From an uncultured Lactobacillales bacterium (GTDB lineage Bacteria; Pseudomonadota; Alphaproteobacteria; CAAHEQ01; UBA3637), in the NCBI GenBank assembly GCA_964414185.1, contig CAYPVK010000005.1, positions 30,876 through 94,875 on the forward strand: 64,000 nucleotides of DNA, given 5' to 3'. Made by a program: the position numbers and the translations under genes. Below the pieces are notes generated by a model. That model was not told where the DNA came from, searched no databases, and saw only the letters and a list, made by a program, of their open reading frames with translations. Positions 41,480-63,895 of this stretch are shown one piece after another (positions within the stretch are counted from its first letter, which is position 1; each line of letters opens with the position of its first letter).

Positions 41480-42157
41480 ATGGAACTGAAGTATATTGCC
41501 TATTTGATTTTGTTTTATACCGGGCTGGCAATTGTCTTGTGCGTATATTTGTTTTTGTTTTTTATGGATTTGTACCGTCGCGGCACATGGTTTTCTTTAA
41601 AAAAGAAACCCCATACGCCAAAGGCATCTCCGGCGTCTCCCCCCGTAGATTTAAATCAGCCGAATATATTTGGGCAAACACCGTTGATAGGGCTTGTCCG
41701 ACATGCCAAATCGGTGGATATGGTTGAGCGGGTTTTGGAAAAGTCCGATGTCAATGTAACCGATGAAAACGGTTATACGGCTTTGATGGCGGCGGCCGAA
41801 TTCAATACGAATGCCGCTATTATGGCGGCTTTGGTCAGTTCGGGTGCCGATGTATTTGCCACCGAATACAGAAAAAGGCGGACGGCGTTGCATATTGCCG
41901 CTTGCAACAATACGAATCCGGATGTTATTCGTGTTTTGTCGGCGGCCGGTGCAGATGTCAATGCGGCGGATGTGAAAGGAAAAACACCGTTGATGCGCGC
42001 GGCGCAACATAATCCCAATCCGGCTGTGATTGACGTTTTGTTGAAAGCGGGCGCAGATAAGACCATGCGCAGTTTGTCCGGGAAGACCGCTTTTGATTAT
42101 GCCCATGAAAATGGGGAAATATATAAAACACAAAGTTATTATGATTTAGAGGTATAG
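41480..42157 (+). CDS. Membrane-anchored ankyrin-repeat protein
   Basis: An N-terminal TM helix (YIAYLILFYTGLAIVLCVYLFLFF) is followed by about four ANK repeats (GYTALMAAAEFN, RRTALHIAACNN, GKTPLMRAAQHN, GKTAFDYA). Confidence 0.75.
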   Translation: MELKYIAYLILFYTGLAIVLCVYLFLFFMDLYRRGTWFSLKKKPHTPKASPASPPVDLNQPNIFGQTPLIGLVRHAKSVDMVERVLEKSDVNVTDENGYTALMAAAEFNTNAAIMAALVSSGADVFATEYRKRRTALHIAACNNTNPDVIRVLSAAGADVNAADVKGKTPLMRAAQHNPNPAVIDVLLKAGADKTMRSLSGKTAFDYAHENGEIYKTQSYYDLEV

Positions 42158-44839: not shown

Positions 44840-45835
44840 TTATTTCCTTCCCCTTTGCCTTTGAGCCCATGTAAACAATGCGAACGGGTCGGAATTTGAA
44901 GAATTGCTTTTTATTTTTACTGCGTTTCCCGGGTTGCCCACCGCTGTGGCGTTTTCCCCTTTTGCAGATTGATTTTCGGTATTGTTCCGCACTTTTTTTA
45001 AATCGATACTTCCTTCGGAATGTTTATCTTCAAAATTTAAATCGTAACGTTCTTTGTTCAAAATATATCCCAAATATAAATCGGTCGGCAATATTTTTTT
45101 TAAAATACCGTGAATGCGCCCGTAAACGCTTTTGGGATTTTTTGATGCCGTTTCTTTGAGCACTTTTGAAACTTGGACATCATCCAATGACAAATCCGCG
45201 ATTAAAACATTTGCATCCGTGTATTGATTTTCATAAGGTTTTAAATATTTTTCGGCCAAATAAAATTGTCCCATTTTGATAAATTCGCCGAACCATGAAC
45301 CGCTTTGTTTGAAATCCGACGGCAACAAAGCCGTTATGCGGCGGATAATATCGGCATTCTGTTGCGCTTTTGAAAAATCTTGCTCGTTCAACAGGTCTTC
45401 ATAGACGCCTTTGCGTTCATAAGGCATTAATTCGGTTATCTTTTTTATAACTTCGTTATCATCCGTTTTTAAGGCAGCACGCAAAAAATCACGATTTTTT
45501 AAATTGTCGGGGTCTTGCCGTGTTGCACCGTAAGCGCGTTCAAGGTATTTTAAAATTCCGTCGGTTTGGTTCAAATAATCGCCGCCGATTGCCGTGGAAA
45601 AAAGAGTTCTTCCTTTAAATTGTTTTTTTAAATCAACATGTTCATAATCAATGGGAACGGAATCAACATCTAAATTGTCATTGATAATGCCGCTTAAAAA
45701 AGTATTCACCCCGCCCATCAACAGCTTAATGTAATAAACACTTACTTCGTCCGGTTTGGCGTTTGCCAAATCGAAATTATATGTAATATAATCGTAATCG
45801 TGTTCTTTTTGAGGGGCGTCGGTTGTCTGATTCAT
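44840..45835 (-). CDS. Hypothetical cytoplasmic protein
   Basis: 332-347 aa depending on start (45835 or 45883). No signal peptide and no recognisable motif. AT-rich context. Confidence 0.4.
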   Translation of the reverse strand: MNQTTDAPQKEHDYDYITYNFDLANAKPDEVSVYYIKLLMGGVNTFLSGIINDNLDVDSVPIDYEHVDLKKQFKGRTLFSTAIGGDYLNQTDGILKYLERAYGATRQDPDNLKNRDFLRAALKTDDNEVIKKITELMPYERKGVYEDLLNEQDFSKAQQNADIIRRITALLPSDFKQSGSWFGEFIKMGQFYLAEKYLKPYENQYTDANVLIADLSLDDVQVSKVLKETASKNPKSVYGRIHGILKKILPTDLYLGYILNKERYDLNFEDKHSEGSIDLKKVRNNTENQSAKGENATAVGNPGNAVKIKSNSSNSDPFALFTWAQRQRGRK

Positions 45836-45996
45836 AATCAACTCTTTCAATTTTAATAATAAAATCAAAGCTTTTAACGGCAATTCGTAATACGATTATT
45901 TTAACATTTTTTTATTTTTTGTCAAGGTGCGAAATAACTTGAAAAGACGGGGCAAGTGTGCTAAAAAAACAATATAATCTAAAAAAAGGAGTTTTT

Positions 45997-46823: not shown

Positions 46824-47489
46824 ATGAAAAAAACGCTAGCTTTGCTTCTTTTGTGCATTTTGTATTCGGCGCCCGCGGCGGCGGTGCCTGTTTTTGACGC
46901 ACAAAAAGTGAAACAAGAAACGCCGGCTGTCGTTGCGGATAAAAATCCTCATGGGCGCATTGATACGCAGAAGGTAAAGCAATGTATGTTTGATTTGCCC
47001 GAAAAAATTGAGTTGAAAGGGTTAAAAGAACCGCTGGTAAAAATTAAAAACCGTTTGGTCGATCACGAAGCGGCCCAAAAGGGGATGGGGTATTCTCAAA
47101 ATTACCAAAATGCCGTTTGTTGGTCTACCGTTTACGTGTATGATTTGGATCAAAAACAAATTACCAAAGCGGTCATTGAAGCGGATTTTTTGCGCAATCT
47201 GCAAGAAATCGGTTATGTATTTGATAAAATACAAAAAAAACAGTTAGAACAATTTCATTCTTATGAAATCCCGATGTTAGATACCAAATATTTGGCAAAT
47301 GTTGCGTTTTCCGATGCAACAAGCGAAGCCTTGATGGAGGGGGAATTTAATAACTATATATTGAAAGGGCGCGCAACCTGCCGTCGGCTGGAAGGTGTTG
47401 AAGCAGATGTTAATGCCAACATCGCCCTAAAACATTTGGCTGAATTGTTAAAGGCAAGTGCTGCGAAGTTGAGGCCTTGTTTAAAATAA
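46824..47489 (+). CDS. Secreted hypothetical protein inserted between tpiA and secG
   Basis: Signal peptide MKKTLALLLLCILYSAPAAA. 221 aa, no recognisable domain. Confidence 0.45.
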   Translation: MKKTLALLLLCILYSAPAAAVPVFDAQKVKQETPAVVADKNPHGRIDTQKVKQCMFDLPEKIELKGLKEPLVKIKNRLVDHEAAQKGMGYSQNYQNAVCWSTVYVYDLDQKQITKAVIEADFLRNLQEIGYVFDKIQKKQLEQFHSYEIPMLDTKYLANVAFSDATSEALMEGEFNNYILKGRATCRRLEGVEADVNANIALKHLAELLKASAAKLRPCLK

Positions 47490-50923: not shown

Positions 50924-51487
50924 ATGGCAAAAATCAATCAGGTTATCAGTGATGGCGGCATCGTTGTTTTCCCCACTGAAACGGTATACGGGTTGGGATG
51001 TGATGCGACAAATGAAAACGTCGTCGCGCGTATTTATAAACTTAAAAAGCGTGATAATAAACCTTTAAGCATTATTGTGCCCGATTTGGCAACAGCCAAA
51101 AAATATGCTTTATTTTCTCCGCGCGAAGAAGCTTTGGCACGCCAATATTGGCCCGGCCCGTTGACTTTGATTTTAAAAAAACGCACCGGCACGGATTTGG
51201 CCGACGGCATAACATTAGGCAGTGCCAATATCGGAATTCGTATTCCGGCATATCCGCCGTTATTGGATGTTATGGTTGAAACGGGCAAAGTGTTGGTCGC
51301 TACCGGTGTCAACAATTCGGGCGAAAAAGAATATTTGACGGCTGAAGAGATTCGCCAAGCTTTTCCAAAGGGTATAGATTATATTTGGGAAGATGACGCA
51401 GCCATTAACGGAGAGGCTTCCACGGTCGTATTTGTAAAGGATGAACAACCGGCGATTATCCGCCAAGGTGCTCTAAAGATTAAATAA
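50924..51487 (+). CDS. tsaC: L-threonylcarbamoyladenylate synthase (YrdC/TsaC type)
   Basis: 187 aa with VVFPTETVYGLGCDATNENVVARIYKLKKRDNKPLSIIV, the YrdC/Sua5 signature. Confidence 0.8.
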   Translation: MAKINQVISDGGIVVFPTETVYGLGCDATNENVVARIYKLKKRDNKPLSIIVPDLATAKKYALFSPREEALARQYWPGPLTLILKKRTGTDLADGITLGSANIGIRIPAYPPLLDVMVETGKVLVATGVNNSGEKEYLTAEEIRQAFPKGIDYIWEDDAAINGEASTVVFVKDEQPAIIRQGALKIK

Positions 51488-51541: not shown

Positions 51542-52558
51542 TTATCTCGAATTTTCGCGTAAAACGGGTCGCCCCTTAAAAAAATAAGGCCTGTAGCGCA
51601 TTTCGGGCGTTGTATATCCGTCGTTCGGGCGATTTGCCAAACGTTCCGTGATAAGGGGTTTAAATTTTTTGTCAAAAAGATTTGAAGCTGTTTTGAGAGC
51701 ATGAGCAGAGACTTGAACAGGATTTTCGTATGCTTTGTAAACTTCATCTTGTCCGGAAAAAATTTTAAACAGCTGAGCCAATTGCATATCGCGTACCAAA
51801 TTGATATCAATGAATATCGGAATCTTTTTTTCCAGCGAATTATAATGTTCGACAATTTTTTCGGTTAATACCCACGGCAAAACGTCTGGTTTATTTACAG
51901 TGGGTGCAAAATCGGCATAAATATCTTGGCAGCAAATCATTTGCCCGAAATCAATAACGGATACTTTTTGGGTGTTTTTATCGTATAAAATGTTTTCGGA
52001 ACGTAAATCATCGTGTGCGATTGATTGCGTTTGACCGATAAAGTCCAATTTATAAACATCCATAACCTTTTGATAAACCGATGCCATTTCAGAACCGGTT
52101 ATTTTTTCAATATTTTTATCGAAACGCCAATCCGAAAAATTGCTTCTTGGTTTTACATTTTCTTCAATCGACAAACGGCTTTGATGCATTTCATTGAGAA
52201 AGACTGCGATATTTTGGGCAATTTTGTTTTGTTCCGCCGGGGTAAGCGAAGCATACAATTTTGATGTTAATTGTTCGCCCGATGCGTATTCTTCAATGAC
52301 ATAATTTGAACTTTTTTTTAAGATTTTGGGAATAAAAACGGGCACATTCAAATTTTCGATGCTTTTTAACCCTTCGCAAGCAAAATCCATTTCATCTTGC
52401 CAACGTTCTTTGCTTATTCCTTGTCGCGGGCGTTTGATTACGATGGGCATACCGTCTTTTTCGGTTAAATAAGCGGTGGAAAAATATCCTTTTCCCAAAA
52501 ATTTTTCTTCTTTTTCGGAATGTTGTTTTCTTTTTAAAATTTGAATCAATTTGGACAT
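51542..52558 (-). CDS. Kinase-fold phosphotransferase (APH/ePK-like), paralogue 1
   Basis: Gly-rich loop FLGKGYFSTAY, beta3 Lys in PIVIKRP, hinge EEYASG, catalytic loop HDDLRSENILYD and VIDFG. Start at MSKLIQIL (52558) or 52603. Confidence 0.6.
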   Translation of the reverse strand: MSKLIQILKRKQHSEKEEKFLGKGYFSTAYLTEKDGMPIVIKRPRQGISKERWQDEMDFACEGLKSIENLNVPVFIPKILKKSSNYVIEEYASGEQLTSKLYASLTPAEQNKIAQNIAVFLNEMHQSRLSIEENVKPRSNFSDWRFDKNIEKITGSEMASVYQKVMDVYKLDFIGQTQSIAHDDLRSENILYDKNTQKVSVIDFGQMICCQDIYADFAPTVNKPDVLPWVLTEKIVEHYNSLEKKIPIFIDINLVRDMQLAQLFKIFSGQDEVYKAYENPVQVSAHALKTASNLFDKKFKPLITERLANRPNDGYTTPEMRYRPYFFKGRPVLRENSR

Positions 52559-52662
52559 GTTTTTTATCCGTTTGCGTTTATAAATTTTATTATAACATAA
52601 CAAACGGATTTTGTCATAAAATTTTAAATTTGTTTCGAAAACTTTTTTGTTATGGAAAATGT

Positions 52663-53721
52663 TTATTCGCGTATACGCACATAAGATTTATACCGTTGAA
52701 TAATGTTTTGTTGCAGATTGTGCGTTTTGCAAATGCCGATACGGTTACCCAAGCGTTCGTTAATTAACGGTTTAAATTCATTTTCATAAAATTCGGATGC
52801 TTGTTGCACCGTTTGTTCGGGAATATCGCCGATTTGCACGTTGCCTTGATAGGTATTGAAAGAAGTTCCCGATGCCGTATGAAAAATTCGAGGCAATTCC
52901 AAATTTGATTTAAAAATTTTACATTCAAATAATTTTAAGATTTGTTGGATTTGTAAATCTCGAACCAATTCCATGTCAATATGGACAGGCATTTTTTTAT
53001 CAAGGCTGTTATAAATTTTAATGATTTTTTGTGTTAATTCCCAAGGTAACAAGCCCGCTTTGCTGATGGTCGGAGCAAAATCGTAATATAAGTCCTTATC
53101 ATTGCCCGCTTCGCCGAAATCAATAATTTTCACCCTTTTTGTGCTCATGTCATAAAGTACGTTGCCGGGCCGTAAATCTTGGTGCGTGTAAGCAATATGC
53201 TTGCCCAAATGTTTCGTATCGTAAATATGGTGCATATTTGATTGAAACAAATCCCAATCTTTATTGCCGATTGCATATCGGATAATTGCGCTGCTGGCGT
53301 ATCCCAACGGTTCGGGGGTAACCGGCACTTTATTTTCGATTGTTTCCAAATGAAATTGGTGTAATGTATTCAAAAAAACGGCAATATCATAGGCAATTTG
53401 ATTTTGTTCTTGTTTCGGCAAAGAAGCATATAAAAGGTTAGTCAACGGTTGACCGGGTAAATAATTTTCAATTAACGTATTGTCTTGAAAAGATTCTATT
53501 TCGGCAGTTTGAACCGGCGTATTGAATTCGCGGAGTACTTTTTGCATATCATAAGCTTTTTGAGCCGATTCGCGCCACGGAATAATCATTTGTTCGTTTT
53601 TGGGTTTTTTGACGGCATATGCTTTATCGCCCGTCTCATAAACATTGACTACGCTGAAATTTCCAAGGAATTGATGGGTTCGTTTGTATCCTTTTAAAAT
53701 TAAAAAATTTTCGGAAATCAT
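52663..53721 (-). CDS. Kinase-fold phosphotransferase (APH/ePK-like), paralogue 2
   Basis: 352 aa with AYAVKKP, catalytic loop HQDLRPGNVLYD and IIDFGEAG. The C-terminal FKPLINERLGNR is shared with paralogue 1 (FKPLITERLANR). AAGAGG RBS 4 nt upstream of the ATG. Confidence 0.6.
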   Translation of the reverse strand: MISENFLILKGYKRTHQFLGNFSVVNVYETGDKAYAVKKPKNEQMIIPWRESAQKAYDMQKVLREFNTPVQTAEIESFQDNTLIENYLPGQPLTNLLYASLPKQEQNQIAYDIAVFLNTLHQFHLETIENKVPVTPEPLGYASSAIIRYAIGNKDWDLFQSNMHHIYDTKHLGKHIAYTHQDLRPGNVLYDMSTKRVKIIDFGEAGNDKDLYYDFAPTISKAGLLPWELTQKIIKIYNSLDKKMPVHIDMELVRDLQIQQILKLFECKIFKSNLELPRIFHTASGTSFNTYQGNVQIGDIPEQTVQQASEFYENEFKPLINERLGNRIGICKTHNLQQNIIQRYKSYVRIRE

Positions 53722-53747
53722 GATGCCTCTTTTATTGACAAGAAAAT

Positions 53748-53776
53748 ATTATATACGAAGGACGATATTTTGTCAA
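53748..53776 (-). promoter_or_regulatory. Consensus sigma-70 promoter driving the kinase pair
   Basis: The minus strand reads TTGACA (53776-53771), a 17-nt spacer, then TATAAT (53753-53748), about 27 nt upstream of the paralogue-2 start codon. Confidence 0.6.
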
Positions 53777-53837: not shown

Positions 53838-53868
53838 TATAAACAAAAACGCCCCGTAAAGGGGCGTT
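53838..53868 (-). terminator. Intrinsic terminator at the end of the pil-like operon
   Basis: AACGCCCC-TTTAC-GGGGCGTT hairpin followed by TTTTTGTTTAT on the minus strand, 20 nt after the pilR-like stop. Confidence 0.7.
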
Positions 53869-53888: not shown

Positions 53889-55028
53889 TTACGAACCCAA
53901 CCCCATGCCGGACACCATTTGGTCTTGCATGGCGAACGTTCCCATAACCACCCATGCGATAATGGTCGCAATCATCAAAATCGCGATACCGTTTAACACG
54001 GCGGCTTTTTGTTCAATATCTTGAACCGAAGATTCCAACCAATCGTCGGACAAGTGTTCCAATGCTTCGGGGAAGTTATCCAATTCGGCGTAAATGCGCA
54101 AATCGCCGACAACTTCTTCATCCGGAAAGCCTTGGCCCGTTTTATAAAGTGCATCGCCCAAGTTATCACCGTTGTTGACGAAAATCAATGCTCTGTCAAT
54201 TCGGTAAAGCAAATATGGCGATGCGTCAGAGCGCAAAGACCGCAATGCTTTGGAAACAGGCGTGCCGGCCTTAACCAAAGCCGCCAAAGAAAGCAACCAA
54301 CCCACGCCGATAAAAATACGGTAAATGGACCACGGCGGAAATTTATCGAAGTTTTTACGCATACCCGATTTCCAACGCGGAAAAGTTAAAACGATAACCG
54401 TAAAAATAATCGGCAACGTGGCAAACAAAATAACAGGGTGTTGGTCCACAAAATTTGACAAGCCGACCAAAGAACCGGCCAACCCCGTCCAAATCAATGT
54501 CGGAACAGCGTCTACCATCGGCGGCACCATGAATTTGCCGACACCCCAAATCAAGAAAATAACCATGACCATCAAGAACATCGGATAACCCACGGCATTA
54601 TAAACGGGAGCTTTCATCCGATTCATCCCTTCCACCACTTTAATGGTGTTGGCAATGGCTTCTTCCAAATTGGCGACATCACCGACGGACAGCATCAAAA
54701 TTTCGGTTGACGGTGCCCAACCGCGCAACGCAACCGAAAAAGATTCACCGTTTTGGATTTTTTTCATCCATTCGGCAACGGCAATTGCCATCGTATCATC
54801 GGGTGATTTACCGTCTTTTGAAGCAATTTGATACATGCGGTCCAATGCATCCATCAAAGAGAATCTGTTTTTCAATAAGGCTCTGAGCTTTTTGTAAAAG
54901 GCCAAACGATCGCTTGTATACATACGAACCGTGGTACGCGCGTACCAATAATTGAGTACGTTCGTTCGGCTCATCCCCTTTTGAGCGATTTTACTGCGGC
55001 TGGATTTCGGCGGTTGCATTTCGGCCAT
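53889..55028 (-). CDS. Type IV pilus/T2SS inner-membrane platform protein, GspF/PilC family (R64 PilR-like)
   Basis: 379 aa. A cytoplasmic helical domain is followed by three TM segments (PMFLMVMVIFLIWGVGKFMVPP; VILFATLPIIFTVIVLTF; AAVLNGIAILMIATIIAWVVM). Last gene of the operon. Confidence 0.65.
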   Translation of the reverse strand: MAEMQPPKSSRSKIAQKGMSRTNVLNYWYARTTVRMYTSDRLAFYKKLRALLKNRFSLMDALDRMYQIASKDGKSPDDTMAIAVAEWMKKIQNGESFSVALRGWAPSTEILMLSVGDVANLEEAIANTIKVVEGMNRMKAPVYNAVGYPMFLMVMVIFLIWGVGKFMVPPMVDAVPTLIWTGLAGSLVGLSNFVDQHPVILFATLPIIFTVIVLTFPRWKSGMRKNFDKFPPWSIYRIFIGVGWLLSLAALVKAGTPVSKALRSLRSDASPYLLYRIDRALIFVNNGDNLGDALYKTGQGFPDEEVVGDLRIYAELDNFPEALEHLSDDWLESSVQDIEQKAAVLNGIAILMIATIIAWVVMGTFAMQDQMVSGMGLGS

Positions 55029-55042
55029 CGGTCAAACTCCTT

Positions 55043-57340
55043 TTAAACTGTAACGTCATTGAATAAACCTGTCCATCTTTCGACTTCGTCAATGTCAATG
55101 ACCCCTTTTAACATGCGTGCTTGGGCTGCTTCACGCAATGTGTGCCCGTTTAATTCCGTTACCCAATAATCCATGGCTTTTTTGGATTCGCCGCGGATCA
55201 TCAAATCCAAGAATGTTGCGTCGGGCAACAAAAATTCGCCCACGACGGTTCGCCCTTTCACACCGCGATATTCACAATGCTTACAACCCGGACCCCTTAA
55301 ATACGATAATTCAACCCCCATGTCGCCATACGCTTGGCGCAAACGTTGTACCGCCGGATTATCTAAACGGTCCTTTGCCCGGATACGGCAGTAAGGGCAA
55401 ATTTTACGGAACAAACGTTGAGACAACATCCCTTTCATAATACTCGGGTCTTGCAATTTAAAATCTTCCACGCCCATATCTTTTAAACGCATCATAATAG
55501 CCGGTGCCGAATTGGCGTGCAAAGTCGTCCAAACGCTGTGACCCGACAAAGCTCCGCGGAAAGCCAAGTCCGCCGCGGCCAATGTACGAATTTCCCCAAT
55601 CATCAATGCATCCGGGTCAGAACGCAAAGCGGCCGCCAAAGCTTTAGTAAATTCGCGGTCTTTAGCCTCTTCGGATGTTGCATTGGTCACGGGCATTTGG
55701 CGAGCACCCGGAATCGGGTATTCCGGCGGGTCTTCCACCGTAATCAGGTTGAGTTCGTAATTGCGTTCTTGCAACATTGAAATCATATTGCGTTGCAATG
55801 TTGTCGATTTACCGGAACCCGTCGGGCCGGCTACAATAACCATGCCGGTCGGAATAGCACGCATCCGATAAAATAATTCCGTTTCTTGCGGTTCAAAACC
55901 CAAAACGCTTAAATCACCGGCCGATTCGGCGTTGTCTTCATCATACAACAAACGCATAACAACATAACGCGTACCGAATGCAATCGGGTTAAATTGTAAA
56001 CGAATACCTTGTACGTTGCGTGGCAAAGTCAATTTGCCGTTTGAGCCGCGCAATGCCGTTTTTCCGACTTTTTGTGCAGCTTGATATTCATTTTGCGCGT
56101 AGTTGGCATCCGAAATATCGGCGGATGCAAATGCTGCGCGGACAAAGCTTTCACCCCAATCGCGATTATATTCCATTTCCGTTTGCATCAAACCGTTCAT
56201 ACGGAACATGACGGTCGTGTGGTCGGCCACAACAATGTGAATATCCGAAATGTGGTTAGCAGCGGCTTTTGAAACAATCGTTACAAAGTCGCGTTGCATA
56301 CGTGCTTGTTCTTGATTGGTTTCTTCCACGTCCGCCGGTGTTTTGGACCGCATTTTGCCGGCGTATTCGTAAATGTTGTTGATGACAACTTGGGGAACAT
56401 ATTCGGGTTGCCCGATTTGCAAACGGCGACGGCGCGTATCGGTTACGAACAACAGCGGCGGTCCGTCATATTTATGATTTTCGGCAACAAAAAAACGTCC
56501 GTTTGAAAAAAGTGCCAACATCGACCGTGTCGTATCGGATATGACATATGATCCGCCCGGTGCCGTAATACATTCGTTGCCGTTAGAAAATAATTCCTTT
56601 AGAAAATTCGATGAAGCATAATTTACTTTTTGGAGAGCATCTTCCCGCTTCAGTTGCTGAGTATTGCCTTTTTGAAGCGGCAATTGCGATTTAATGTTGT
56701 CTTTCGGTTTCGGTTGAATATTAATGCGTTCAATCGGAAACGATACTTTATCGGACGTATCTCTTGCTTGTGGGTGCAAATCCTTCGTCCGGAAATTTGT
56801 TGCTTCCCCGACGTTATTTGAAGATACAGTATCGGTGGAAATGGGATGGTCGGATTCGTTATTTGATTCGTTGGTGTTTTTGGTAAAATCGTCCGTATTT
56901 TCGGAGTCGTCTTCCGACATTTGCGGGATAACGGGCGTAGTCGGTATGACAGGGGGCATCGGTTCATCAGGTGAATTAATCATATTTTCTCCGCTGTCCG
57001 ATTCGATTGAATTTTCACCCTGTTTCGATTGTTCGAAAACAGTATCGTCCGTTTGACGATCAGATATATTTTCGATTTCATTTTGTGTTTCGTCAAAAGA
57101 ACGATTATTTTGTTCGCCGTTGTTTTCAAACGAACCATATTCGTCCGAATCTTTCGGCAAATTGGGTTCAAAGCCGGACGATTCGTTCGTATCTCCGCCG
57201 ATTTCGGGCAAAACGGGGGCATCATCCATAAATATGGCTTCAGTATCGACAAACGCATTTTTGTCATAAAAAGAACTCCCGCGCACCGGAGACGGCACGA
57301 GTTCCGAATTTGAAGAAAGCGTTTTATCCTGTTCAGCCAA
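55043..57340 (-). CDS. GspE/PilB-family secretion ATPase with ~270-aa acidic disordered N-terminal extension (R64 PilQ-like)
   Basis: Walker A VVAGPTGSGKSTTLQ, Asp/His boxes and the tetracysteine motif CPYCR...CKHCEYRG typical of GspE/PilB extension ATPases. The N-terminal third is Asp/Glu/Ser/Asn-rich low complexity. Confidence 0.8.
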   Translation of the reverse strand: MAEQDKTLSSNSELVPSPVRGSSFYDKNAFVDTEAIFMDDAPVLPEIGGDTNESSGFEPNLPKDSDEYGSFENNGEQNNRSFDETQNEIENISDRQTDDTVFEQSKQGENSIESDSGENMINSPDEPMPPVIPTTPVIPQMSEDDSENTDDFTKNTNESNNESDHPISTDTVSSNNVGEATNFRTKDLHPQARDTSDKVSFPIERINIQPKPKDNIKSQLPLQKGNTQQLKREDALQKVNYASSNFLKELFSNGNECITAPGGSYVISDTTRSMLALFSNGRFFVAENHKYDGPPLLFVTDTRRRRLQIGQPEYVPQVVINNIYEYAGKMRSKTPADVEETNQEQARMQRDFVTIVSKAAANHISDIHIVVADHTTVMFRMNGLMQTEMEYNRDWGESFVRAAFASADISDANYAQNEYQAAQKVGKTALRGSNGKLTLPRNVQGIRLQFNPIAFGTRYVVMRLLYDEDNAESAGDLSVLGFEPQETELFYRMRAIPTGMVIVAGPTGSGKSTTLQRNMISMLQERNYELNLITVEDPPEYPIPGARQMPVTNATSEEAKDREFTKALAAALRSDPDALMIGEIRTLAAADLAFRGALSGHSVWTTLHANSAPAIMMRLKDMGVEDFKLQDPSIMKGMLSQRLFRKICPYCRIRAKDRLDNPAVQRLRQAYGDMGVELSYLRGPGCKHCEYRGVKGRTVVGEFLLPDATFLDLMIRGESKKAMDYWVTELNGHTLREAAQARMLKGVIDIDEVERWTGLFNDVTV

Positions 57341-57366: not shown

Positions 57367-58332
57367 TTATTCAACGGGATCGGCCGGTACCGTCGGCGTT
57401 GAAACTTTTTTCGGGCCTGCTAAAACAAGAGAACTTTCGTTATCGCCGTAAACGACAAAAACGGCATCTTTCGTGATTTTTTTGACAATATGACCGGATG
57501 GTAACCTGTCATCTACACTGACAGTCAATACAGAATCGTCTTCCAAATCACGCAATTGAGCTTTTAATATGCCGCGAATCCCTTTTACGCTGGTCAGAAC
57601 ATATAAATCGCTGAAAACAGCATTCGTTTTTATCGGATTGATTTCGATAGCCGGAGCATCGCTCGTGTTATCATTTGCCGCTTGTGCTTTTTCCAACGCT
57701 TCGGCACGCAATTGTTCACGCAAAGCTTCCGCTTCGGCAATTTTTTGTTCAAGTGCTGCGGCTTCTTCTTTCTTTTGTTCGGCTTCTAAACGGATTTTTT
57801 CCTGTTCCTGCCACCATTTGATACGGCTGCGAACAACTTCTTCGCGTTTGGCAATTTCATCCAAACGGGCTTGACGATAAGTTGCTTTTAATTTTTCCAA
57901 ATCATTTTTAAGCGTTTCTTTTTGCGTTTGCAATTTCAAAAAGACATTGCCGCGTTCCAAGTCAGCCATTTCTTGGAAAACTTCACTGGTAATACGCCCG
58001 AGCAATTGTTCACTCGGTAAATCGCGCGGAGAAACGGAACGTTCCATCGAAGACGGACCGGTAATAATGCTTTCCGAAACACCGGGCAAAGGTGCTAATT
58101 CCAACGAACCCAAAGTCGGACGATTGGGGAAATCGACGACTTGCTTGGATTCCGTAGGGACGTCATTTAATTCTTTTTCAAGAAGGGCGCGGCTCGCTTC
58201 ATCCAAAACTTTCGGAGCTTCCAAATTTGTGTTTGCTTCCTGAGCCTTAACCGGCATACCGACAAGGGCAACGGTCAGCATTAAAGCGCTTAATAATGAT
58301 AAAGGTTTATTTGGCATAAATTCTCCCTTCAT
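57367..58332 (-). CDS. Periplasmic coiled-coil protein, PilP-like
   Basis: Signal peptide, then ~90 aa of Glu/Lys/Ala-rich coiled coil (EEKIRLEAEQKKEEAAALEQKIAEAEALREQLRAEALE), then a C-terminal beta domain. Position matches pilP in R64-type operons. Confidence 0.4.
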   Translation of the reverse strand: MKGEFMPNKPLSLLSALMLTVALVGMPVKAQEANTNLEAPKVLDEASRALLEKELNDVPTESKQVVDFPNRPTLGSLELAPLPGVSESIITGPSSMERSVSPRDLPSEQLLGRITSEVFQEMADLERGNVFLKLQTQKETLKNDLEKLKATYRQARLDEIAKREEVVRSRIKWWQEQEKIRLEAEQKKEEAAALEQKIAEAEALREQLRAEALEKAQAANDNTSDAPAIEINPIKTNAVFSDLYVLTSVKGIRGILKAQLRDLEDDSVLTVSVDDRLPSGHIVKKITKDAVFVVYGDNESSLVLAGPKKVSTPTVPADPVE

Positions 58333-59638
58333 ACTTCCATTTGTTATTGACTGATTCTACTGCTGGGTTATACTCGATTTTTAACAATTCCAGGCCTGAA
58401 AACTTATCAAAGAACGGTTTCCATTCCCATGGCGTATAGGCCGATACGACCGTAAAGGCGTAATAAGTATAATTTTGTTGATTCGGCGGCGGTGTACCGT
58501 CGGGATTGTTTGGCGGATCTTGAACCGTTTGCACCGAAAATTGGATGGGCAAGTTGGTCGCTTGCGAAATATCCGTTAATTCTTCACGGATTTGAGAAGC
58601 CGTTAACGTCGGAATGGAAGCTTCCAACGGAATATCGTTAAATGTGATACGACCCGACGCAATATTGCCCGATTCGTTTAATTGAATGTCGATACGGGAA
58701 ATTTTATATTCTTCAATCGCTTTTTTTACCCAAGCTATACGCCCGCCCGGATTCCATGATTTTGTCCAATTTGTCGTGATGCCGGTCGGCGTGCAAACAA
58801 CCGTACCCAATTGCCAACCCGGTATTGTCAGGTTGTTTAATTGATACGAATTGTTCCAACATTTATTTAAAAAGACATTTATATCCGGTAATTTTTCCCA
58901 CGGTTTCGGCTTTTCAGGCGCCGGCACGACCGGTTCAATGACAGTTGGTGTCGGTACGGCCACAATCTTTTCTTGAGTAAAGACGGTTTCCCACAGCGAA
59001 CTGACCAAATAAACAACGCCGCCCAATAACGCAATAACCACTAAGGTAATGCCGATTAAAAATTGCGTGCGTTTTACGGCGCTGAGTTCGACTAAACGAA
59101 TTTTGCGTGCGTTCTTAACGACGGGTGCCAGTTCAACTTCTTCGGATCCTTCAATTTCCCAATTTTTAGGCGCGATTTTTATGTCCCAATCCGGAACGGC
59201 CATCATTGAAAAAAACGCGCGTTGAGCATCTTCTTCATTCGTAAACAGACGGTCTTCTTCGGACAAAATCAAATCGTTACGGATGGAAACAAACCACCAA
59301 CCTTCTTTGACCTTAAAGACGGCACAAACGGATGTTTTGTCGGCGTAATAGCTGGCAACGGCGGCAGCGGCAGACGGTTGCCCTTCGCGATGGCCCATTG
59401 ATTTGCGTCCGACACCGTATTGGGGAGCGGATGCGGGCCTTAAACAATACAGATCCAAGCCCGGTTCGCTTTCAATAACTTCGCGAATTTCGGGAATCGG
59501 ATCATCCGGATTTTGCAACGATTGCCACATCAACCCGACGGCATAAATCGTACCGCCGACGACAATGGTACCCAATAGATCTTGTCGTTCCTGATATTGT
59601 GTCGGTGCGCCCGCTTGCGAAATGTCTGTATTTTCCAC
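58307..59638 (-). CDS. Bitopic inner-membrane protein, PilO (R64/PF06864)-like
   Basis: 443 aa with a single central TM (LIGITLVVIALLGGVVYLVSSLW). Size and position match R64 PilO (431 aa). Overlaps the downstream gene by 26 nt. Confidence 0.4.
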   Translation of the reverse strand: MENTDISQAGAPTQYQERQDLLGTIVVGGTIYAVGLMWQSLQNPDDPIPEIREVIESEPGLDLYCLRPASAPQYGVGRKSMGHREGQPSAAAAVASYYADKTSVCAVFKVKEGWWFVSIRNDLILSEEDRLFTNEEDAQRAFFSMMAVPDWDIKIAPKNWEIEGSEEVELAPVVKNARKIRLVELSAVKRTQFLIGITLVVIALLGGVVYLVSSLWETVFTQEKIVAVPTPTVIEPVVPAPEKPKPWEKLPDINVFLNKCWNNSYQLNNLTIPGWQLGTVVCTPTGITTNWTKSWNPGGRIAWVKKAIEEYKISRIDIQLNESGNIASGRITFNDIPLEASIPTLTASQIREELTDISQATNLPIQFSVQTVQDPPNNPDGTPPPNQQNYTYYAFTVVSAYTPWEWKPFFDKFSGLELLKIEYNPAVESVNNKWKYEGRIYAK

Positions 59639-59668: not shown

Positions 59669-61345
59669 TTAAAAGTCGCGCATCCGGGTTTCGGGCGATA
59701 AAGGCGATTCCAAAACCTCAGGTGTCAACAAGATAACCAATACGTTGCGTACGCGTTTCGAATAGGATTTTCCGCCCAGTAAGCTCATTTTCGCTCTGCC
59801 GATGCCGGAAGTTTCCGTTTGGTTTTGAATGCTTTCAAAACCGGTCAAAACAAGAGTGGAACCCGAACGCATGGCAATTTCTTGCATAAAGCCGCGCATT
59901 TGCATTTTCGGCAATTGTACGATGGATTGGTCCGTATCTCCGGTATTGTCATCGTCATCTTCGTTTTCGTTTTCGTTTTCGTCTTCATCGGAATTATTAT
60001 TATTATTTGAATTTGTTCCCGAAGACGAGAATGTTGTCAATGAAATAAGATCCGTCAAATTCAATGAGAACAAAACAATCAAACGGCCGTGATCCAAAAT
60101 CCGCGGTAAAATTTCCATCGTGAAACCGTAATTCAACGTATCCGTTTCATAATCGACTTCCGTATTTCTGTCCGTACCGCTGCCGTTTGTTGTAACATTT
60201 GTTTCTTTCACATAGTTTTCTGATGTTGAAATTTGAACGGGCGCAATTTTATTGTTCAACGTCGTAACGGAAGAGCTGGTCACCAATGATGTTTTTCCTT
60301 GAGTTGACAATGCTTGAATAATGGCACCCGAATCTTTCCATCTGGAATTCGGATCAATCAAAGTCATCGAAAGCAAGCCCGCGACACCGGATGTGCCGGA
60401 ACCGGCCGCAGCGTCAATGAAGTACGGACTGTAATAATTGCCGGACAATTTATTGCTGTTGAAAACGGCTTTTAAATCCAAACCGTAATTGTCTTCGGCA
60501 TTGATTTCAACTTGCAAAATTTTTACCGAAATAGCAACTTGTCTGGACATTTTTTCATTCCAGTTATTAATATATGACGCTACTTTGCGCATGACAAACG
60601 GGCTGGCCGTAACGGTAACGGTACCCGTTGCGCGGCTGAAAGAAAGTTTCCCTTCTTCACCGACCACTTGTTCAATCCCTTTTTCAATGCTGTCCCATAA
60701 GGCCAAATTGGCGGAAGTGGACAAATTCGACGAAGAATTGCCTTCCGTGGAACCGTTTGCCCCCATTGACGCCCCTTGAATTGAAGCATCCATTTGTGTT
60801 TCATTCGGTAAAGCATACAATGTAAAGACACGTGTTTCTTTCGTATAGAAAGTTATTACGCCGCCGCGGTAACGCCACCAAACGCCATAGCGGTTGGAAA
60901 TATAATTCAACAGACCGCTGAGTTTACCCGAATAATTAACGGGCACCGTTTCGGTCGGTACGGCGTTTTCGGCCTTCAAATCATCCAAACGAACCGAAAT
61001 GCCCGTCATATCCGTCAATTCTTGGGCTAAAACAGGCAAAGTTTCTTCCTCGGCAATGGAAACGGTAATACCGTCATCTTTTTCAGCCCAAGCGGGCAGG
61101 GCATCACCTTCCATAATCTTAACGCTTTGATTACCGAGCCAAATATCGTTTTTGGAACGGACCGTGTCGACCGGCTCCGGAATATCGGGTACTTGCGCTT
61201 GTTGCAAAGCTTCTTCAGCGCGTTCCAAAGTCGTTTCGATTTTGGCATTGGTTTCTTTCGTGTATTTTTCACAGGAGGTTAAGGCTAAAACCCCTAAAAC
61301 AACACCGACAAATAACCCCAGTTTCTTATTAATCTGCATTTTCAT
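59669..61345 (-). CDS. Secretin lipoprotein (R64 PilN-like) with acidic low-complexity insert
   Basis: Lipobox ALTSC. The C-terminal secretin domain ends ...GIGRAKMSLLGGKSYSKRVRNVLVILLTPEVL. An internal insert NSNNNNNSDEDENENENEDDDDNTGD is encoded partly by (GTTTTC)3 on the plus strand. Confidence 0.7.
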   Translation of the reverse strand: MKMQINKKLGLFVGVVLGVLALTSCEKYTKETNAKIETTLERAEEALQQAQVPDIPEPVDTVRSKNDIWLGNQSVKIMEGDALPAWAEKDDGITVSIAEEETLPVLAQELTDMTGISVRLDDLKAENAVPTETVPVNYSGKLSGLLNYISNRYGVWWRYRGGVITFYTKETRVFTLYALPNETQMDASIQGASMGANGSTEGNSSSNLSTSANLALWDSIEKGIEQVVGEEGKLSFSRATGTVTVTASPFVMRKVASYINNWNEKMSRQVAISVKILQVEINAEDNYGLDLKAVFNSNKLSGNYYSPYFIDAAAGSGTSGVAGLLSMTLIDPNSRWKDSGAIIQALSTQGKTSLVTSSSVTTLNNKIAPVQISTSENYVKETNVTTNGSGTDRNTEVDYETDTLNYGFTMEILPRILDHGRLIVLFSLNLTDLISLTTFSSSGTNSNNNNNSDEDENENENEDDDDNTGDTDQSIVQLPKMQMRGFMQEIAMRSGSTLVLTGFESIQNQTETSGIGRAKMSLLGGKSYSKRVRNVLVILLTPEVLESPLSPETRMRDF

Positions 61346-62153
61346 CCTCCTGCGTGTTAATTACCAACACTCTGTTTCCTTTATAGAATGTGCCGATGGG
61401 GGCAGGCGTCGCCCTGGCAAAAGAGCGAATGAGAGCACCGGATACTTCCGTGAATGTGCCGCGGAATACAACGCCTGCTTCCAAATGATAATCTCTTTCC
61501 AATTTCCAAATAATCGTCCAACCGGATTTTTCACCCCAATCCATCAACAAAGTACGCAATGTTGAACCGGCCGTTGCTTCCCAGTCATGGCATTCTTCGC
61601 CATAAGCAACTTTTTTGGCCAATGCGGATTTTTGGTTGACAACCGTTTTGATTGTTTTTTCTTCAACTTTTGAAGGAGCGACAACCGATACGACAGGCGC
61701 GTTTGTGCTTTCGGTTGTTGTTGTTTCCACGACGGTTGTTTCAACAACTTTTGTTCCCGTTTTATCTGCTGCTTTCGTTTCGATGACTTTCGTTTCGGAG
61801 GCTTGTGTTTGTGCTTCAATTTCAACGACTTGCGGCTTTTGCGCTTTGTCCTTTACGGATACGCCTTTGTCTCCGGCCGGTTTTGAACGGGCCAAATCGC
61901 CGTTTCCCGCAGAAATAACCACCGGTTTTTTATTTGACGTTGTCGTGGTAACCGTATATGTATCGGAAGAAAATTCGGGCAAATACATGCCGGTTTGATT
62001 ATCCGTTACCATAACACATTCAATCCCGGCTTCATCGTAGCAATCCGGGACAATAACAATGTCTTCTTGGTCGTTTGCGGCGCAACCTGCCAATCCCAAC
62101 GAGCAGGAAATGACGGCCACATACGCGGTTTGTTTCAATAAACTGGGTTTCAT
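61329..62153 (-). CDS. Lipoprotein with TcpQ-like C-terminal domain (PilL-like)
   Basis: Lipobox LAGCAAND, a Thr/Val/Glu-rich linker, and the C-terminal ECHDWEATAGSTLRTLLMDWGEKSGWTIIWKL...GTFTEVSGALIRSF resembling the TcpQ-type domain of PilL proteins. Overlaps the secretin gene by 17 nt. Confidence 0.45.
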   Translation of the reverse strand: MKPSLLKQTAYVAVISCSLGLAGCAANDQEDIVIVPDCYDEAGIECVMVTDNQTGMYLPEFSSDTYTVTTTTSNKKPVVISAGNGDLARSKPAGDKGVSVKDKAQKPQVVEIEAQTQASETKVIETKAADKTGTKVVETTVVETTTTESTNAPVVSVVAPSKVEEKTIKTVVNQKSALAKKVAYGEECHDWEATAGSTLRTLLMDWGEKSGWTIIWKLERDYHLEAGVVFRGTFTEVSGALIRSFARATPAPIGTFYKGNRVLVINTQEDENAD

Positions 62154-62237: not shown

Positions 62238-63275
62238 CTACCATGCCGTTGTTTGTTTTTCAATCTTTCTGCCCGTGCTCGATTCGGTAACGATTACCTG
62301 TTGAGGATCGCTTTTAAGCGCGGTGCGCAAAACCAAACTGTTCGGTTCGCGGTTTGTTTGAAGCATGCGGATTTGGTGAGATGACAAACCGTTGCTCATC
62401 AAAGTATTGCGCACAAGTGCCAATCGTTTGTATTGAATTTCGGGGTCTTGATTGCTGACGCGGACTTCTACAACAAGACGCGGGTCGGCCAAAGCGCTTT
62501 TGGCATACGCTTTAATCCACTTTAAAGTTTGTCCCGAAAAATCGGTTGCGTTTTTATAAAAAGATACTTTGATTTCCTGAGGCATGATAAAACCGGGCTT
62601 TTCCCCTTGTTCGGAAGCACTCAAGAATTGATCGGCGTATTCCGACGGAATGACGTGGCGCACATACTTGTCGGGAGTGGGTTCGACCGTCGGTTTTTCG
62701 GGTAATGGTGCCAACGGAATAAGTATCGGCGTTGTCCGAGCCGTTTTGGTTACGCGTGTCGTGGTCGTTGTTGTCGTTGTTCCGCCGGCGGTGTGGCCGG
62801 TACCGAGTTGTTTCGGCGTACGTGTGCCGTTTGGCGATGTTGTGCCGGTTGCATTCGCGGATAACGAAGCGACATCAATGTCAATATTGATATCTTCACC
62901 GACGGGGGCAGGTGTCGCACCGACGTTTTGCGATGTTAAAACGATCGGCAATTCTTGCGTTGTCGTACGGGTCATTGTCGTGGTGGTGGTTGTTGTTTTT
63001 GTACTTTCGCCTTCTTTGACTTCAATCATGTCATTAGAGGCGGTTTCGCCTTCGACGGGCAACAAATAAGTCGGTAATAAGAAATCGCCTTCGGCGGTAA
63101 TGGTTGCAACGGCATCTTCGGCCGTATCGTCTTTTTCATCCGTCAACAGTTCGGCGGTTTCGTTCGGGTCACCGTCGCCTTGCGCAATTTCCGCATAAAC
63201 GGGATGTATGCACAGCATTCCCAAAATCATGCAGATGCCTAATGACGAAGTAAAAAAGAGTTTATGTTTTACCAT
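62238..63275 (-). CDS. Secreted Thr-rich protein with OmpA-like peptidoglycan-binding C-terminal domain (first gene of operon)
   Basis: Signal peptide, two poly-Thr runs (TKTTTTTTTMTRTTT; GGTTTTTTTTRVTKTARTT), then a C-terminus ...LVVEVRVSNQDPEIQYKRLALVRNTLMSNGLSSHQI matching the OmpA_C pattern. Confidence 0.4.
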   Translation of the reverse strand: MVKHKLFFTSSLGICMILGMLCIHPVYAEIAQGDGDPNETAELLTDEKDDTAEDAVATITAEGDFLLPTYLLPVEGETASNDMIEVKEGESTKTTTTTTTMTRTTTQELPIVLTSQNVGATPAPVGEDINIDIDVASLSANATGTTSPNGTRTPKQLGTGHTAGGTTTTTTTTRVTKTARTTPILIPLAPLPEKPTVEPTPDKYVRHVIPSEYADQFLSASEQGEKPGFIMPQEIKVSFYKNATDFSGQTLKWIKAYAKSALADPRLVVEVRVSNQDPEIQYKRLALVRNTLMSNGLSSHQIRMLQTNREPNSLVLRTALKSDPQQVIVTESSTGRKIEKQTTAW

Positions 63276-63532: not shown

Positions 63533-63895
63533 ATGAATACTTTTGTTAAATATTTGTCCTTTTTTGCTATCGTGTCTATAGCTTTCTTGGCAACGGATGC
63601 GTTAGCACAAACTGCCGGCGGTGTCGGTAGTAAGGATGCTTTTTCTGTTGTTTTGACACGTATGGTTACGACATTCAGAAACGTTCGTTCCGTGATTTTC
63701 GTCGTCGGCGGTTTCGGTTTGGTCGGTTTGGCCTTTGCCGCTATTTTCGGTAAAGTTAAATGGGCTTGGTTGGCGGCTTTGGCTGTCGGTTTGGCTATCG
63801 TTGCCATCGCCGGTGCGGTTGTTGACTATGTTACGCAAGCAGACTCTGCACAAAACGTATACACACCGAGCCAATTCGGCGATACGTTGTACTAA
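63533..63895 (+). CDS. VirB2/TrbC-family T4SS pilin-like protein
   Basis: AAGGAGG RBS. Sec signal ending ALA, then a mature N-terminus QTAGGVG (compare QSAGGG of VirB2), then two hydrophobic helices (VIFVVGGFGLVGLAFAAIF and WLAALAVGLAIVAIAGAVV) separated by GKVKWA. 120 aa. Confidence 0.45.
   Translation: MNTFVKYLSFFAIVSIAFLATDALAQTAGGVGSKDAFSVVLTRMVTTFRNVRSVIFVVGGFGLVGLAFAAIFGKVKWAWLAALAVGLAIVAIAGAVVDYVTQADSAQNVYTPSQFGDTLY

Follow-up and report, generated by a model that had tools for sequence, protein, structure and literature searches.

Two paralogous kinase genes beside a pil-like operon

The 64 kb stretch of contig CAYPVK010000005.1 analysed here (the window; all coordinates are window positions unless another locus is named) carries two tandem genes for kinase-fold phosphotransferases on its minus strand, kinA and kinB, immediately beyond the end of a pil-like operon. 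kinA (52663..53721) encodes, from an ATG start, a 352-amino-acid protein of the aminoglycoside phosphotransferase/eukaryotic-like kinase (APH/ELK) fold with K38, H180-x-D182-xxxx-N187 and D201-F-G, and kinB (51542..52558, likewise with an ATG start) encodes a 338-residue paralog of the same fold. The two proteins are 35% identical across 317 residues (E 2e-59) and their catalytic apparatus is intact, in agreement with an initial annotation of this DNA that had called them tandem paralogous kinase-fold phosphotransferases. Each of the motifs quoted there is encoded on the minus strand, namely the lysine motif (AVKKP / VIKRP in the kinA/kinB pair), the catalytic loops (HQDLRPGNVLYD / HDDLRSENILYD), the DFG motifs (IIDFG / VIDFG) and a C-terminal FKPLI(N/T)ERL(G/A)NR common to both. 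The glycine-rich loop that had been ascribed to both proteins holds for kinB, which has a GxGxxS loop (GKGYFS); in kinA it is reduced to GNFS. As had also been stated, neither protein has a detectable signal peptide, and no hydrophobic or transmembrane segment was found in either; both are therefore predicted to be cytoplasmic.

An exact TTGACA-N17-TATAAT promoter (53748..53776, minus strand, 12/12 match) precedes kinA, and direct reading of the sequence places an AAGAGG Shine-Dalgarno at 53726..53731 (minus strand), with the ATG 4 nucleotides further on; both elements had been described before and both are confirmed. This promoter is the sole exact consensus match in the window, no match arose in 100 shuffles, and across four orthologous loci the -35 hexamer is invariant and the -10 hexamer conserved while the surrounding spacer is divergent. 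A second promoter, overlooked in the initial annotation, lies in the 104-nucleotide spacer between kinA and kinB (ATGACA-N17-TATAAT with an extended -10 TG; 52589..52617, minus strand, 11/12 match). It is kept in two relatives, L002 and L006, the latter with TTGACA. A mechanical list of open reading frames extends the kinB N-terminus to a TTG at 52603; since the promoter lies downstream of this codon, translation more likely begins at the ATG at 52558. The spacer between the two genes showed no terminator, and transcription from the kinA promoter may therefore extend into kinB as well.

The kinases lie on the same strand as the pil-like operon and are divided from it by a terminator, as first proposed. 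This intrinsic terminator (53848..53868, minus strand) consists of an 8-bp GC-rich stem followed by a TTTTGTTT T-run, and we regard it as real because relatives keep the hairpin and the T-run despite different stem sequences. From the conserved consensus promoters and the upstream terminator we infer that kinA and kinB each have a strong sigma-70-type promoter of their own and are expressed independently of the pil-like operon.

Both promoters are flanked by inverted repeats: TTTATTGACAA/TTGTCAAAAAA at kinA (53731-41/53770-80, 10/11 paired, 28 nucleotides apart) and ATCCGTTTG/CAAACGGAT at kinB (52566-74/52601-09, 9 nucleotides perfect, 26 nucleotides apart). These may be chance occurrences or operator-like sites. 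The repeats are partially conserved, they differ in sequence between the two promoters and the kinB repeat is absent in L006, for which reasons we did not adopt the operator reading. An Rfam search of the genes and their surroundings gave no match even at E <= 1, and thus no riboswitch or leader that might hint at a ligand.

Fold and catalytic residues

Profile searches place both proteins in the APH family. Each exceeds the gathering threshold of Pfam PF01636 (kinA 42.5 bits, kinB 42.1 bits; cut-off 23.2), with coverage of profile positions 21-210 and 4-211, respectively, of 239. The protein kinase profile PF00069 matched a stretch of just 30-37 residues that begins at the catalytic loop and ends at the DFG motif, and this match does not extend into an activation segment with APE or into subdomains IX-XI. 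When a family profile was searched against all PDB sequences, APH(2'') enzymes came first (E 3.5e-14 for APH(2'')-Ia to 1.6e-11), and protein kinases appeared only at E >= 1e-5, over ~45 residues.

Structure prediction with AlphaFold 2 (AF2) agrees with this assignment. ELKs are recognised by an insert before the catalytic loop, a C-terminal helical subdomain and the lack of a long activation segment or GHI helices (PMC4702295). The AF2 models of kinA and kinB display this architecture: helices at residues 141-168 (kinA) and 144-170 (kinB) stand ahead of the catalytic loop, ~24 residues separate the DFG motif from the next long helix, and helices run to residue 324 (kinA) or 307 (kinB). Compared with known structures, the models align with APH chains over 214-252 residues and with eukaryotic protein kinases (ePKs) over ~160; neither model contains an ePK-type activation segment or a protein-substrate lobe.

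The catalytic residues K38, H180, D182, N187 and D201-F202-G203 (kinA numbering) are invariant in 30 family sequences, among them the very divergent P0013, a 376-residue APH-type kinase (L010, 8001-9131) that is 26-30% identical to kinA and kinB. Because of this invariance, and with ratios of nonsynonymous to synonymous substitution rates (dN/dS) of 0.13-0.23, kinA and kinB are predicted to be functional, catalytically competent enzymes. P0013 carries the family-specific C-lobe motif YNxLxKKxPVHID, yet its catalytic loop is an ordinary APH loop, HGDLGAPN. The HRDLKPEN-like 'DLRP' of the window kinases is therefore a local feature and no evidence of an ePK hybrid; the idea that these proteins combine an aminoglycoside/choline-kinase pattern with a protein-kinase pattern, put forward in the initial annotation, is thus not supported.

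Distribution and evolution of the kinase family

Among 5.8 billion proteins, a word-indexed search found 7 kinA clusters with 58-94% identity. HMMER, run exhaustively on 1.84 billion representatives, gave two strong clusters, kinA (E 4e-192) and kinB (E 2e-120). The next HMMER match, P0009, is a 1069-residue repetitive protein matched in 15 short stretches (E 2.9e-40), beyond which only distant APH-like proteins were found (E ~1e-30 or weaker). The nearest outgroup kinases (P0010, P0016, P0017 and P0018) lie in unrelated contexts under generic 'phosphotransferase' names and offer no functional lead. Another distant outgroup protein from outside the window, P0011 (640 residues), has two APH domains in tandem fusion; duplication of this kinase type thus recurs elsewhere.

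The family is confined to one clade of uncultured Alphaproteobacteria, whose taxonomy and ecology rest on sample labels and on the labels of metagenome-assembled genomes (MAGs). The named carrier is the MAG 'Alphaproteobacteria bacterium UBA7488', listed in the NCBI taxonomy under 'unclassified Alphaproteobacteria'; a literature search on 'UBA7488' found no paper. Sample labels on the contigs of several relatives (HMPC19, ASCI21) look like those of human-microbiome studies.

All loci with kinA or kinB share one gene order (TrbC-like gene, pil operon, kinA, kinB, Sua5, enolase), with two variations. In L001, kinA stands alone and Sua5 follows 28 nucleotides beyond; in L010, where PilR is 89% and enolase 99% identical to the window proteins, the slot holds a single P0013-type kinase. 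The number of kinases per locus is therefore 1 or 2, and the pil-adjacent slot holds extremely diverged versions of the kinase family. Among the same relatives, amino acid identity to the window is 97-98% for PilR and 99% for enolase, and falls to 80-89% for kinB and 66-83% for kinA. The dN/dS range of the kinases given above compares with 0.013-0.10 for neighbouring genes, and the G+C content of both is 37% versus 44-49% for their neighbours. In a sliding nucleotide comparison, two local divergence troughs were seen, one at kinA and one at the N-terminal extension of the PilQ-like ATPase. The synonymous rate of kinA is 1.5-2.2 times that of its neighbours and nucleotide identity falls locally; no sharp mosaic boundary was resolved that would identify recombination as the source of this excess divergence. 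The kinases are thus accessory, clade-restricted and faster evolving than their neighbours. We also considered a mobile resistance gene, an idea left without support because tblastn searches at E <= 1e-5 gave no match, either with kinA in plasmids or with kinB in phages.

Probable function

On balance, and with moderate confidence, we favour the reading that kinA and kinB are cytoplasmic, strongly and separately expressed accessory APH-type small-molecule O-phosphotransferases, unrelated to the pil system and likely modifying an exogenous compound. Of the two possibilities raised in the initial annotation, a small-molecule kinase is thereby preferred to an effector, in line with the APH-type fold and the PF01636 scores. 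Judging from the fold and the invariant residues, both proteins would be nucleotide-dependent O-phosphotransferases of the APH/eukaryotic-like small-molecule kinase fold. The N-lobe lysine (K38 in kinA) and the DFG aspartate (D201) would hold the nucleotide and Mg2+, and D182, the aspartate of HxDLRxxN, would serve as the catalytic base towards a hydroxyl group of the substrate. The predicted substrate site is flanked on one side by the core and on the other by the C-terminal helical region, which is specific to the family and carries the conserved YNxLxKKxPxxID and FKPLIxERL motifs. Most likely, the enzymes would modify a hydroxyl-bearing small molecule of exogenous origin, for example one resembling an antibiotic, and thereby inactivate or capture it. 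As two diverged paralogs, kinA and kinB probably differ in substrate, and aminoglycosides would be one candidate class among others. We infer an exogenous rather than a core-metabolic substrate from the fast evolution, low G+C content and variable copy number of the genes, the lack of pathway partners and the structural proximity to antibiotic kinases.

Several observations weigh against this reading. Antibiotic kinases are over-represented among PDB structures; their top ranks are therefore partly a matter of sampling, which weakens the structural argument. The acidic residue of helix alpha-C is not strictly conserved among kinA orthologs, and the matches also include peptide-phosphorylating enzymes with an APH fold (TvaE, LxmK). 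No transporter, biosynthetic or catabolic partner gene linked to the kinases is present in the locus. The kinase slot beside the pil operon persists to the relative with the 89% identical PilR, which would allow a functional link between the two. Similarity to APH(2'') fades at about residue 220-242, which leaves most of the substrate-binding helical region outside the match. Finally, the overall charge is neutral to basic (isoelectric point 7.2 for kinA and 8.7 for kinB, with 8.9 and 9.75 for the C-terminal segments; these values describe the charge of the whole protein or segment), unlike the negatively charged aminoglycoside pockets of APH(2''), APH(3') and APH(4), which in APH(2'') are formed with the helical subdomain (PMC3691515). 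Anaerobes, moreover, are intrinsically resistant to aminoglycosides (PMC3691515), which is relevant if this organism is an anaerobe. Given the charge, the end of similarity ahead of the substrate-binding subdomain and, in the case of an anaerobe, this intrinsic resistance, an aminoglycoside substrate for kinA or kinB is doubtful.

Alternatively, the pair could belong to ordinary metabolism, as salvage or other metabolic kinases whose substrate is a nutrient or an endogenous small molecule (choline/ethanolamine, a sugar or amino sugar, methylthioribose, homoserine or aminopropanol). We consider this unlikely. No pathway or transporter gene is linked to kinA and kinB. The kinases occur in a single clade and are missing from its near relatives, diverge rapidly and vary in copy number. 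The homoserine kinase model scored 23.5 bits against a cut-off of 271, and all such families ranked below the antibiotic kinases. Orthology to a housekeeping kinase (homoserine kinase II, fructosamine kinase or the YihE/SrkA family), named in the initial annotation as the result that would speak against its proposals, was indicated neither by a curated model nor by the top structural match.

Relation to the pil-like operon

The pil-like operon runs on the minus strand towards the kinases. From its upstream end it comprises an unassigned 345-residue exported threonine-rich protein (62238-63275), TcpQ/PilL (61329-62153), the secretin PilN (59669-61345), PilO (58307-59638), a PilP-like protein (57367-58332), a PilQ-like T2SSE ATPase (55043-57340) and, as its last gene, a PilR-like T2SSF platform protein (53889..55028; PF00482, 89 bits). 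Divergent from the operon is a solitary TrbC/VirB2-family gene (63533-63895, plus strand; 120 residues with a signal peptide). At L009, the TrbC-like gene is followed by a gene for a 145-residue protein and one on the opposite strand, with no trb operon. The order PilL(TcpQ)-PilN-PilO-PilP-PilQ-PilR is that of the R64/PAPI-1 type IVb loci (pilL-pilV). In R64, pilS and pilV come after pilR, in the position occupied here by the kinases, which differ from such components in forming a separate transcription unit. No prepilin, prepilin peptidase or PilM/T/V gene adjoins the operon, a six-frame regular-expression scan of the window found no type IV prepilin-like N-termini, and tblastn with the pilin-like proteins of distant loci gave no match.

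The initial annotation had called the presence of the kinases in the place of pilS/pilV unusual. A metagenome scan with PilR retrieved 24 loci, one of which, L019, comes from the same clade as the window (PilR 99% identical) and has both kinases. In the other 23 (PilR 39-66% identical), the downstream flank, as far as it was available, contained no member of the kinase family; wherever the upstream DNA reaches far enough, the PilN-O-P-Q-R order is retained. Three of them have genes with pilin-like or related N-termini after PilR (L038, 6841-8121; L032, 5391-8444; L036, 6134-6685; PilR 53-57% identical), and in most others unrelated genes directly follow PilR. The pilin-like N-termini of these distant pil loci include ...GRSMVEMLGVLAIIGVL and that of a 1017-residue protein beginning ...QRGALMVEAIALLGL. 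Because these 23 related loci lack a kinase, the kinases are not a component of the pil system, and because most of them also lack a pilin at that place, the kinases do not replace pilS/pilV; a meaningful link to the pil operon is accordingly not supported. The kinases are instead an insertion peculiar to this clade, placed between the operon's end and a housekeeping block, and simple inheritance would account for their unchanged position in close relatives.

The PilQ-like ATPase has an acidic, Ser/Thr/Asn-rich low-complexity N-terminal extension of ~340 residues (56320-57340, minus strand). The length of the ATPase varies from 666 to 821 residues among relatives, and the extension is the strongest local divergence trough, with 53-75% nucleotide identity versus ~90% in the flanks. 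One might accordingly picture kinA and kinB as APH-fold peptide or protein kinases that regulate the adjoining pilin-less type IVb-like machine, for instance through this extension. We hold this to be quite improbable. The kinases have their own promoters and a terminator divides them from the operon, so that they show no sign of co-transcription with it; the 23 related pil loci do without them; every genome that bears them is a close relative, among which a shared position may be simple inheritance; and the models lack an ePK-type activation segment or protein-substrate lobe. A broader version, in which a fast-evolving APH-fold kinase is functionally tied to the machine and phosphorylates the ATPase extension, another machine protein or a cargo, appears still less credible to us. 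It could draw on the persistence of the kinase-after-PilR arrangement to the relative in which PilR is 89% and the kinase only 26-30% identical, and on the two peaks of divergence in the locus, which fall on kinA and on the PilQ extension; if true, it would be the first case of a type IV filament or secretion system under the control of an APH-fold protein kinase.

Wider genomic neighbourhood

On its other side, the slot of the pil-unrelated kinases is bounded by a convergent housekeeping gene of the Sua5/YciO/YrdC family (50924..51487, plus strand; PF01300, 176 bits), which is the neighbour in all relatives and, with enolase, opens a housekeeping run downstream. The rest of the window is an ordinary Gram-negative chromosome with PEPCK, BamD, RecN, LigA, PlsX, FabH, MacAB-TolC, LptF/G, ComEC and HisS. 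Two conserved genes without a Pfam match stand among the housekeeping genes, one at 44840-45883 (minus strand; 347 residues, 37.5% G+C and thus AT-rich like the kinases) and one at 46824-47489 (plus strand; 221 residues, 41% G+C). Between ComEC and HisS, 10 kb from the kinases, lies a gene for a 225-residue ankyrin-repeat protein (41480-42157, plus strand), which relatives have too. Few free-living bacteria have ankyrin repeats, and this protein hints at a host- or eukaryote-associated lifestyle.

Such a lifestyle would suit the second proposal of the initial annotation, that the kinases are secreted, host-directed effectors of a host-associated bacterium. The sample labels that suggest human-microbiome assemblies, the ankyrin-repeat protein, the fast evolution of the genes and partial matches to effector kinase models are consistent with it. 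These matches are restricted to the catalytic loop and fall far under the cut-offs (LegK1, 21.3 and 17.4 bits versus 550; XopAU, 16.6 versus 450; OspG_kinase, 16.3 versus 27). Moreover, the proteins have no signal peptide, the locus shows no type III and no complete type IV secretion system, only the solitary TrbC/VirB2-like gene, and the fold is of the small-molecule-kinase type. We regard the effector proposal, which these data do not bear out, as extremely improbable.

A role as anti-phage defence kinases, similar to PD-T4-6 or to TCAD9 of conflict systems, would likewise fit fast-evolving, AT-rich genes of variable copy number. The best PADLOC match was to PD-T4-6 (E 8e-10, 36 bits, kinB N-lobe only), alongside a weak match to mad6; other PADLOC matches scored 13-26 bits at the catalytic loop, and Pfam TCAD9 reached 21-24 bits. 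Such short, partial matches are expected for any two kinase domains, the TCAD9 scores lie under the cut-off of 40 bits, no defence or mobile-element genes were found around the kinases, and neither phage nor plasmid records held homologs. A defence function is hence, in our estimate, extremely improbable.

Significance and comparison with known kinase families

If kinA and kinB are indeed small-molecule kinases acting on an exogenous compound, they would constitute a small branch of the antibiotic-kinase (APH) superfamily that had not been described before, chromosomal in uncultured Alphaproteobacteria apparently derived from human-microbiome samples, equipped with consensus promoters and diversifying quickly. 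Each would then be a candidate reservoir resistance or xenobiotic-modifying enzyme. The branch is new but narrow, the superfamily is well known, and nothing points to a new mechanism; what is understood about kinases and type IV pili does not change. The main value of the analysis is a clean negative, in that the protein-kinase-like catalytic loop and the pil-adjacent position are both superficial.

With the Hanks Ser/Thr kinases (PF00069), the window kinases have a catalytic core in common: HxDLRxxN resembles HRDLKPEN, and DFG is present in both. At the sequence level they belong to none of the families of Mph macrolide 2'-phosphotransferases (MphL model, 21 bits versus a cut-off of 612), APH(9) spectinomycin kinase, viomycin kinase, corramycin phosphotransferase or amicoumacin kinase. 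Their identity to the APH(2'') enzymes (APH(2'')-Ia, -Ib/IIa, -IIIa and -Id/IVa) is only 14-22%. The best NCBIfam APH(2'') model, NF033692, scored 37.1 and 35.4 bits against a cut-off of 475, and the others 17-35 bits against 600-625; with 17-37 bits versus cut-offs of 475-625, a named APH(2'') resistance enzyme is ruled out. Compared with APH(2''), the window kinases have ~40-50 additional C-terminal residues, which comprise the family-specific motifs and a disordered basic tail, and they differ from the APH(2'') resistance enzymes in being chromosomal genes of an uncultured alphaproteobacterium.

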